From the IMG/VR virus record IMGVR_UViG_3300025316_001101: a DNA stretch of 64,000 nt; one strand, given 5' to 3'. Origin of the DNA: a virus. Its lineage: Duplodnaviria > Caudoviricetes. The notes below the pieces were generated by a model. The model was not told the DNA's origin. It saw only the letters and a program-made list of their open reading frames with translations, and ran no database searches. Made by a program: the position numbers and the translations under genes. Shown piece after piece: positions 9,763-9,997 of this stretch. Position 1 is the stretch's first letter, and every line of letters starts with the position of its first letter.

Positions 9763-9997
9763 AAAGTCCTCGGCCGACAAGAAGCGTAGAGACGCCATTC
9801 CCTTTCGGGAAGTTATAGCCTTCACGCACGGACCCTTTCAGGTTACCGCCGTTCGAAACGCAATTAGATCTCCCCTTCGAGAGATCACCGGATTCAGTCG
9901 AAACTTACCGGCTTGTGCTGTCGCTTGCAGGTCGCCCTGTTTTGCTACCTTAGGACCATCATTGATGTAGTCCCCACTACATTCGGCCGAGGACTTT
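9763..9997 (-). ncRNA. structured ncRNA E1 carrying 23S rRNA H69-H71-like segments
   Basis: Perfect 15-bp terminal stem (9763-9777/9983-9997); GAAA/GAAG-capped hairpins with G-U pairs favouring the minus strand; GGUCCUAAGGUAGC, CGACCUGCA, GGUAAGUUUCGAC, GAAUGGCGU segments. Confidence 0.8.

Follow-up and report, generated by a model that had tools for sequence, protein, structure and literature searches.

A putative Y RNA of a large phage carries a permuted mimic of the 23S rRNA H67-H71 junction

An element of 235 nt in a large phage genome, here called E1, is, to judge by its sequence, a Y RNA variant whose scaffold holds an rRNA module resembling the H67-H71 junction of 23S domain IV, a combination previously undescribed in Rfam 15 and in the literature searched. 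A preliminary description of this DNA had recognised a discrete, folded, sense-strand RNA mimicking 23S H69-H71, and in this it was probably right; what it missed is the main fact, namely that the frame of the element is a Y RNA scaffold and that the phage encodes Ro60. Sequence comparison shows the Y scaffold, a permuted rRNA module within it, long-range helices that covary, and a link with rsr and with tRNA and RNA-repair loci. A second element, E2, carries a mimic of the 23S GTPase centre.

Results

Genomic context of E1

The window, which is the whole stretch of 64,000 nt that was analysed, is part of a 259-kb virus record that is about half complete. The record carries 48 tRNA calls, a tmRNA, a release factor, RlaP and an HNH_5 protein. 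E1 is placed on the minus strand of the tRNA region, between a DUF6934 gene (10016-10450) and an ORF of 75 aa (9520-9747), and identical copies of it are present in independent metagenomes. A promoter-like site ends 3-5 nt ahead of E1, and a U-rich tract follows its closing stem (Table 1). The Ro60/TROVE gene of the phage (C1:127091-128800) gives a Pfam vWA_Ro60 match (E=1.7e-17) plus a TROVE match, while RtcB was not found in the phage genome, about half of which is available.

Other features of the window include genes for an MscL-like channel and a Clp N-domain protein (8786-9448 and 15674-16315), two tRNAs with the amber-reading CUA anticodon (16289-16362 and 43227-43301) and odd tRNAs whose anticodon calls are two bases long (38689-38913). 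Repeated sequences comprise tandem repeats of ~210 nt (59503-61261), 15-nt repeats (35361-35896), a segment duplicated ~29 kb apart (18333-19911 with 47329-48882) and a repeat of 66-95 nt in three dispersed copies (495-560, 20423-20517 and 27816-27910). One copy of the latter stands just upstream of the unit formed by tRNA-Ala and E2, and the repeat is possibly a promoter element.

Table 1. Predicted features of E1, of its flanks and of E2 (window positions)
Feature	Position	Strand	Basis
E1, whole Y RNA with 23S domain IV (H67-H71) mimic module, 235 nt	9763-9997	minus	Found at E=7e-17 by HMM of 44 homologs (E1 left out)
Putative sigma70-type promoter: TTGCAA, 16 nt, TG-extended TATATT	10000-10029	minus	Consensus scan; predicted start ~9995-9997
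P1 closing stem, 5' strand (15 bp with 9763-9777)	9983-9997	minus	Pair probability 0.5-1.0; covaries in family
Candidate Ro60-binding motif GCCGAAUG, fits GNCGAAN0-1G	9980-9987	minus	Identical in YrlA at L048:2688-2817
P2 5' strand and conserved CUACA of Y scaffold	9966-9977	minus	Small-Y-RNA HMM match 9958-9988, E=5e-4
H69 3' half, equivalent to 23S 1915-1924; pairs with 9815-9820	9954-9963	minus	Homolog comparison
H70 strand (1925-1934), CUAAGGUAGC	9944-9953	minus	Exact 23S match
H71 stub hairpin (GCGA loop), ending in CGACCUGCA = 1958-1966 in register	9926-9939	minus	Folding and 23S match
AGCGA-CA-GCA, ~1964-1975 equivalent (H70 partner, H67 3' strand)	9916-9925	minus	GCGA-NN-GC type motif in 40/45 homologs
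Variable domain replacing 23S 1976-1829; private H71-loop-like GGUAAGUUUCGAC (9897-9909), stable hairpin (9867-9886)	9863-9915	minus	
H67 5' strand-like UGC and shortened H68-like helix (base UUC/GAA, family GAACGG)	9821-9862	minus	H68-base covariation; H67 support weak
H69 5' half, GGCUAUAAC = 1906-1914, G1910-C1920 changed to A-U	9812-9820	minus	Covariation, sequence inspection
GAAA hairpin inserted at opened H69 loop	9798-9811	minus	Pair probability 0.55-1.0
P2 3' strand	9786-9793	minus	Folding, sequence comparison
Y scaffold 3' motif CUUGUC and P1 3' strand	9763-9781	minus	YUYGUC in 56/72 Y RNAs without rRNA module
U-rich tract after P1, likely 3' end	9758-9765	minus	Sequence; not called by terminator scan
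E2, Y RNA carrying 23S GTPase-centre mimic (H42-H44, ~1015-1110)	19912-20212	minus	88% over 50 nt, E=3e-11

Resemblance to rRNA

With E. coli rrlH 23S, plus 16S, as reference and exact matches of at least 7 nt counted, matches in E1 cover 76 of the 100 nt of 23S 1885-1984. Dinucleotide shuffles, named in the preliminary description as a test that could refute it, reached a maximum of 59 in 5000 trials, while the same coverage was 28 on the opposite strand and at most 58 in other 235-nt segments of the genome. The minus strand of E1 folds with z = -5.2, and the 15-bp closing stem at its ends, as described before, is accompanied by hairpins with GAAA, GCGA and UUCG loops.

All seven rRNA-like pieces of the preliminary description are found on the minus strand exactly where it had located them. 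Their reading as a scrambled mosaic has to be abandoned, as the homologs show an order that is circularly permuted yet colinear. Three of the pieces are in register, namely GGUCCUAAGGUAGC, CGACCUGCA (23S 1958-1966) and AACGG, a family element within the H68-like helix. CUAUAAC, which counts as mis-mapped, corresponds to 1908-1914, in the 5' half of H69, rather than to 1914-1920, and CUUGUCGG is the 3' motif of the Y RNA scaffold rather than a piece of rRNA. The last two are private to E1 and out of place: GGUAAGUUUCGAC occurs in 0/45 homologs, with a chance probability of ~0.003 in post hoc shuffles, and GAAUGGCGU, likewise in 0/45, may be a chance match.

Such a chance match, together with a Shine-Dalgarno sequence of ORF 9520-9747 lying 6-9 nt past P1, is what could be said for E1 being a fortuitous resemblance, an assembly artefact or the 5' leader of that ORF. 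This explanation is scarcely credible in view of the shuffle test, of the identical copies in independent samples and of 45 distinct homologs with other neighbours. The leader alternative, which the preliminary description had itself raised as a 5' UTR, is unsupported, the downstream gene being present at no homolog locus. A coding role was rejected as well: a 14-nt insertion just past P1, seen in two strains, breaks the 101-aa extension of the ORF, and E1 is unchanged.

Several known identities were set aside. Rfam, applied to the window and to 20 homolog loci, returned no family for either class of rRNA mimic, and no rRNA-mimic Y RNA was found in Rfam 15 or in the open literature searched, a scope that leaves subscription papers outside. 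YrlA (RF02553; tRNA-like D/T domain, >69 bits) gave neither an Rfam nor an ARAGORN match on E1, and YrlB (RF02565; short hairpin RNA, >97 bits) gave no match. A captured fragment of an rRNA gene was discarded because there is no continuous colinear 23S alignment, the longest exact match is 14 nt and no LSU match is returned by Rfam. An antisense guide was rejected too, as the plus strand has neither an inbound promoter match nor an excess of sense rRNA and the tetraloops favour the minus strand.

Y RNA scaffold

When 32 small Y RNAs from other loci were made into an HMM, the 5' core of E1 (E=5e-4) ranked among rsr-adjacent RNAs. In the phage, at least six small RNAs trail the Ro60 gene (L017:7092-10060, which is C1:127091-130058 of genome G000), two of them with weak Rfam matches to YrlA/YrlB. 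These small RNAs and E1 have in common a terminal stem, GAAUG, a strand of 8-12 nt, CUACA and a 3' YUUGUC. Also in the Ro60 array are RNAs of tRNA shape whose anticodon arm contains a permuted Y stem.

The features by which a Y RNA can be recognised are largely present: E1 has the 5' motif, defined for Rsr binding as GNCGAAN0-1G (PMC4201824), the end-to-end stem, the scaffold similarity and a Ro60/Rsr gene in its genome. The distance to rsr is 88 kb on the same strand, whereas bacterial Y RNAs usually lie no more than ~4 kb from rsr, on the same strand. E1 is thus a predicted Y RNA, with all testable features except proximity to rsr in the phage genome.

Weight matrices of the Y scaffold, derived from Y RNAs without rRNA modules, were also scanned on E. 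coli 23S (L001). The 3' motif scored best at 1940-1948 and third best at 1102-1110, and the 5' motif was joint second at 1967 (1967-1973). The Ro-binding element may itself resemble H70/H71, a comparison made post hoc.

Among the closest known systems, YrlA, a tRNA-mimic Y RNA of bacteria and phages (RF02553; PMC4201824), is like E1 in its Ro-binding 5' motif, terminal stem, CUACA and 3' YUYGUC, and like the E1 family in plan, with a scaffold bearing a permuted mimic of a translation RNA, and in occurring in the same rsr arrays. E1 differs from it in mimicking 23S H67-H71 instead of the D, T and acceptor arms of tRNA, in having no Rfam match, in its length of 235 nt and in its distance from rsr. 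YrlB (RF02565) and Deinococcus Yrn1/Yrn2 have, like E1, a long closing stem with an internal loop, and their small relatives follow rsr in the phage (weak Rfam matches); unlike E1, they have a short loop or a T-arm and no rRNA-like domain. The leader RNAs of L10, L20 and other ribosomal proteins mimic rRNA substructures as cis-acting mRNA leaders of r-protein operons, whereas E1 would be a Y RNA standing on its own, without any constant gene downstream. The setting, with 49 tRNA/tmRNA genes, Ro60, RlaP and a release factor, is that of the jumbo-phage tRNA arrays, tmRNA and ROT/TROVE RNA-repair platforms (PMC7824862); the part of that source covered here mentions only tRNA-like Ro partners for these platforms and, unlike the E1 locus, no rRNA mimic.

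Homologs and their neighbours

Homologs were searched with a DNA pattern joining the Y core to CCTAAGGTAG, and Ro was not used. True loci account for 28/39 of the pattern matches in metagenomes, 21/35 in species genomes and 2/46 in viral contigs; the others (11/39, 14/35 and 44/46, respectively), with no closing stem and no rsr, were set aside as chance or partial. The 45 distinct sequences found besides E1 form, with E1 counted, 38 groups below 80% identity, and are located mostly on genome contigs of Myxococcota, Polyangiales or Deltaproteobacteria type, chromosomal or prophage, in addition to metagenomes and two more large phages. An HMM built only from the part past the search pattern still ranks E1 first (E=4.6e-4).

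The rsr gene is present in the fetched stretch at 20 of the 51 homolog loci versus none of the chance matches, and it was found elsewhere in the genome in 10/10 other genomes tested and in both other phages. Recurrent neighbours are HNH_5 (16 loci), RtcB (6), ARPP-1 (4), RlaP (3) and RtcA (2), as well as tRNA arrays, and a YrlA above the Rfam threshold lies 77 nt from one member of the E1 family. In six genomes (G422, G598, G600, G601, G603 and G604) the match to Ro60 is interrupted near residues 195-228 and consists of two parts, possibly indicating a split or frameshifted gene. A second H69/H70-like stretch with no visible Y scaffold was observed in phage G422 (L245:1490-1535).

BLAST of E1 against cultured phages gave no match, and a homolog query in phages and plasmids returned only real or contaminating rRNA, including apparent plasmid rRNA operons. 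Patterns built on the scrambled order of the preliminary description retrieved no viral homolog, neighbour-protein searches retrieved only near-identical strains or unrelated context, and only noise came from a loose H68 pattern in 401 genomes and from a mis-specified H69 pattern in 201. The six matches of a final viral scan are attributed to chance. Myxococcus phage Mx1 has Ro of the same clade and Y cores, and the domain IV type was not found in it.

Anatomy of the permuted module

After CUACA the module runs through the 3' side of H69, H70 (to 1934-1936), a short hairpin replacing H71, the equivalent of 1964-1975 and the variable domain, and then onward through the 5' strand of H67, a shortened H68 and the 5' side of H69, from which it returns into the Y stem. 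In this order the module is a circular permutation of the 23S H67-H71 junction, opened in H69. It is like 23S domain IV in the 1906-1936 sequence, the helix at the base of H69, the H70 strand, the base of H68 and the 1964-1975 equivalent; unlike domain IV, it is permuted and has H69 opened, H68 and H71 shortened, 1939-1957 and 1976-1829 replaced and several pairs flipped. A minimal member of 134 nt (L083:3709-3842) consists only of H69, H70 and the H71 stub, with no H67/H68 part.

Positions 1915-1923, which are outside the search pattern, match 23S in 31-44 of 44 homologs, and the conservation of H70 is largely built into that pattern. One member, retrieved without use of the H70 pattern from a complete Ro phage of 407 kb, combines C1925U with G1929A, changes that presumably keep a 1925-1929 pair of the rRNA structure. 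The apical hairpin of H69 is intact in 34/45 sequences, with the break at 1908/1909; in the other 11, E1 among them, the break is in the H69 loop, after 1914 where the 5' half is readable. The H71 loop, part of the resemblance first proposed, is kept in register in 0/45 members.

Pairing was scored against shuffles that ignore phylogeny and relatedness, with anchors chosen after the sequences had been seen: the base of H69 (1906-08 with 1922-24) spans ~130 nt and covaries, with 100/105 cells canonical versus a mean of 89.5 and a maximum of 97 in 20000 shuffles; the base pairs of H68 are canonical in 99/114 cells, versus a shuffle maximum of 96; and those of H67 in 90/105, a value that 89 of 10000 shuffles reach and for which anchoring is imperfect. 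Seven versions of the H69 base occur (GGC/GUC, GAC/GUC, GAU/GUC, GGU/ACC, GCU/AGC, GGC/GCC and GAU/AUC). In E1, GGCUAU (9815-9820) can pair with AUGGUC (9954-9959) to form an H69 stem of six pairs, in which G1910-C1920 becomes A-U. ViennaRNA did not predict this long-range helix in E1, where its pair probability is ~0 and the constrained fold has -88.9 versus an MFE of -95 kcal/mol.

These substitutions preserve long-range RNA pairs and not the DNA sequence, which weighs heavily against a DNA-level feature such as the target site of a homing endonuclease (I-CeuI type) or a group I intron; group I intron homing had been listed for this rRNA region in the preliminary description. HNH genes are indeed common neighbours and the full 26-nt site is present in 11/45 members, but it always falls within the Y scaffold and is split in the subtype of E1, which has the 3' half only instead of the intact 26-bp I-CeuI site. 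A homing target is extremely improbable. A target of MazF, also part of the earlier interpretation, is not favoured: UUCCU/UCCUU at 1939-1943, which we take to be the target site of MazF-mt3/mt6 and RlmD, is in register in 0/45 members, which speaks equally against a decoy of these enzymes.

Another idea, in line with the suggestion of the preliminary description, is that the RNA is a sink for housekeeping enzymes or factors of this region (TlyA, RluD, RlmH, RRF, HflX), which would alter ribosome modification or recycling. In its favour, H69 and its basal junction, which TlyA recognises (PMC9168844), are the best-conserved part of the module, and among 44 homologs U1917 is kept in 43, C1920 in 38 and G1921 in 44. 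Against it, position 1920 is U in E1 and position 1915 is not, none of the members retains 1939-1943, and the link to RNA-repair loci is left unexplained; a sink appears decidedly improbable.

GTPase-centre mimics

E2 abuts tRNA-Ala (20213-20284), directly after it, and its mimic has an insertion at the tip of H44. At six loci on bacterial contigs (L106, L098, L041, L092, L094 and L099) a GTPase-centre module is found beside the domain IV type. ARPP-1 domain genes were noticed at L089, L094, L098 and L099, and the GTPase-centre Y RNA is present at three of these four loci.

Related GTPase-centre mimics, in which no Y scaffold could be recognised, were observed on ten viral contigs (L190-L199) and in two cultured phages, Yersinia phage fHe-Yen9-04 (L226:2500-2730) and Ralstonia phage RSP15 (L227:2490-2790); most of the phages concerned yielded no Ro. 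RSP15, fHe-Yen9-04 and L190 resemble one another in a large structured insertion at the tip of H44. These scaffold-less mimics are not in Rfam and are unannotated in GenBank; since they exist without the Y scaffold, Ro would not always be needed. Helix 44 of the GTPase centre is the target of an antibacterial ADP-ribosylating toxin (PMC8661411).

Discussion

The effector module of E1 would be a free-standing copy of the 23S subunit-interface junction, comprising H67, the base of H68, H69, H70 and the H71 stub. E1 would be transcribed as a discrete RNA, which the phage Ro60 would bind and stabilise through P1. In the least certain step, the RNA would act as a decoy for effectors of the host or of rivals, such as RNases or RNA-modifying toxins, with specificity for the junction, and ribosomes would keep working during infection. 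That E1 may be such a decoy, or competitive inhibitor, of effectors recognising these rRNA centres is the reading we favour, at slightly less than an even chance, because of the gene context, the parallel with YrlA and the known toxin acting on helix 44. For YrlA, competitive inhibition of an anticodon nuclease has been proposed (PMC7790460); since the H69 loop is opened in the subtype of E1, this RNA could be, as proposed for tRNA-like YrlA, a substrate analogue that binds and is non-productive. Counted against the decoy are the 88 kb between E1 and rsr, the failure to find RtcB, the H69 helix that is not predicted in E1, the limits of the covariation test noted above, the GTPase-centre mimics that lack a Y scaffold and the loss of the MazF site. 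An effector cutting or modifying H69/H70 was not identified, and none was found in the literature searched.

Two further roles have to be weighed. The module could be a tether or adaptor that imitates the 50S interface. Ro60, accompanied by RtcB or a nuclease, would in this way dock either on the 30S subunit or on some factor with affinity for H69 or the GTPase centre, and ribosomes would be repaired, stored or degraded. For a tether it counts that conservation falls on the interface bases and that a Y stem leaving from H69 would place Ro near the decoding site. The precedent is Deinococcus, where Rsr, which acts on 23S rRNA, is linked to PNPase by a Y RNA (PMC4201824); furthermore, RtcB religates cleaved 16S rRNA (PMC7790460). 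A tether is nonetheless unlikely, given that the H69 loop is opened in 11/45 sequences, E1 included, that the H71 loop is never in register and that the GTPase-centre class would require a different partner.

It is quite improbable that the RNA serves as bait or sensor, with a ribotoxin cutting or modifying it beside Ro60 and the damaged end or the freed Ro triggering or feeding RNA repair. Salmonella YrlA is uncleaved by the inducing nuclease (PMC7790460), RtcB was not found in the phage genome and the loop is opened in E1, although an intact apical H69 hairpin comes directly after CUACA in 34/45 sequences, at the position of the anticodon loop in the tRNA-like Y RNAs of the same arrays, and RNA-repair genes neighbour homolog loci.

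The decoy reading can be extended to both classes of mimic. More tentatively, and as a possibility rather than a probability, large phages and some bacteria may carry a panel of decoys on Ro60, made up of tRNA mimics and of mimics of two 23S centres, the subunit interface and the GTPase centre; the H67-H71 mimic would then imply undescribed effectors that attack H69/H70.

Conclusions

For the second module of bacterial Y RNAs, the literature searched describes tRNA-like modules only. The two rRNA-like modules indicate that mimics of translation RNAs in general can be mounted on the Ro scaffold, for which they suggest a role in RNA conflict. The mimic described here is a natural, protein-free junction of the 50S interface, available in 45 sequence variants, and could serve as bait in affinity work and for structural modelling. 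As a decoy, should it prove to be one, it would represent a new phage counter-defence and would predict rRNA-targeting effectors that are not yet known. If the reading as a panel of decoys is true, the H67-H71 mimic would be the bait with which effectors of the H69/H70 junction may be isolated.
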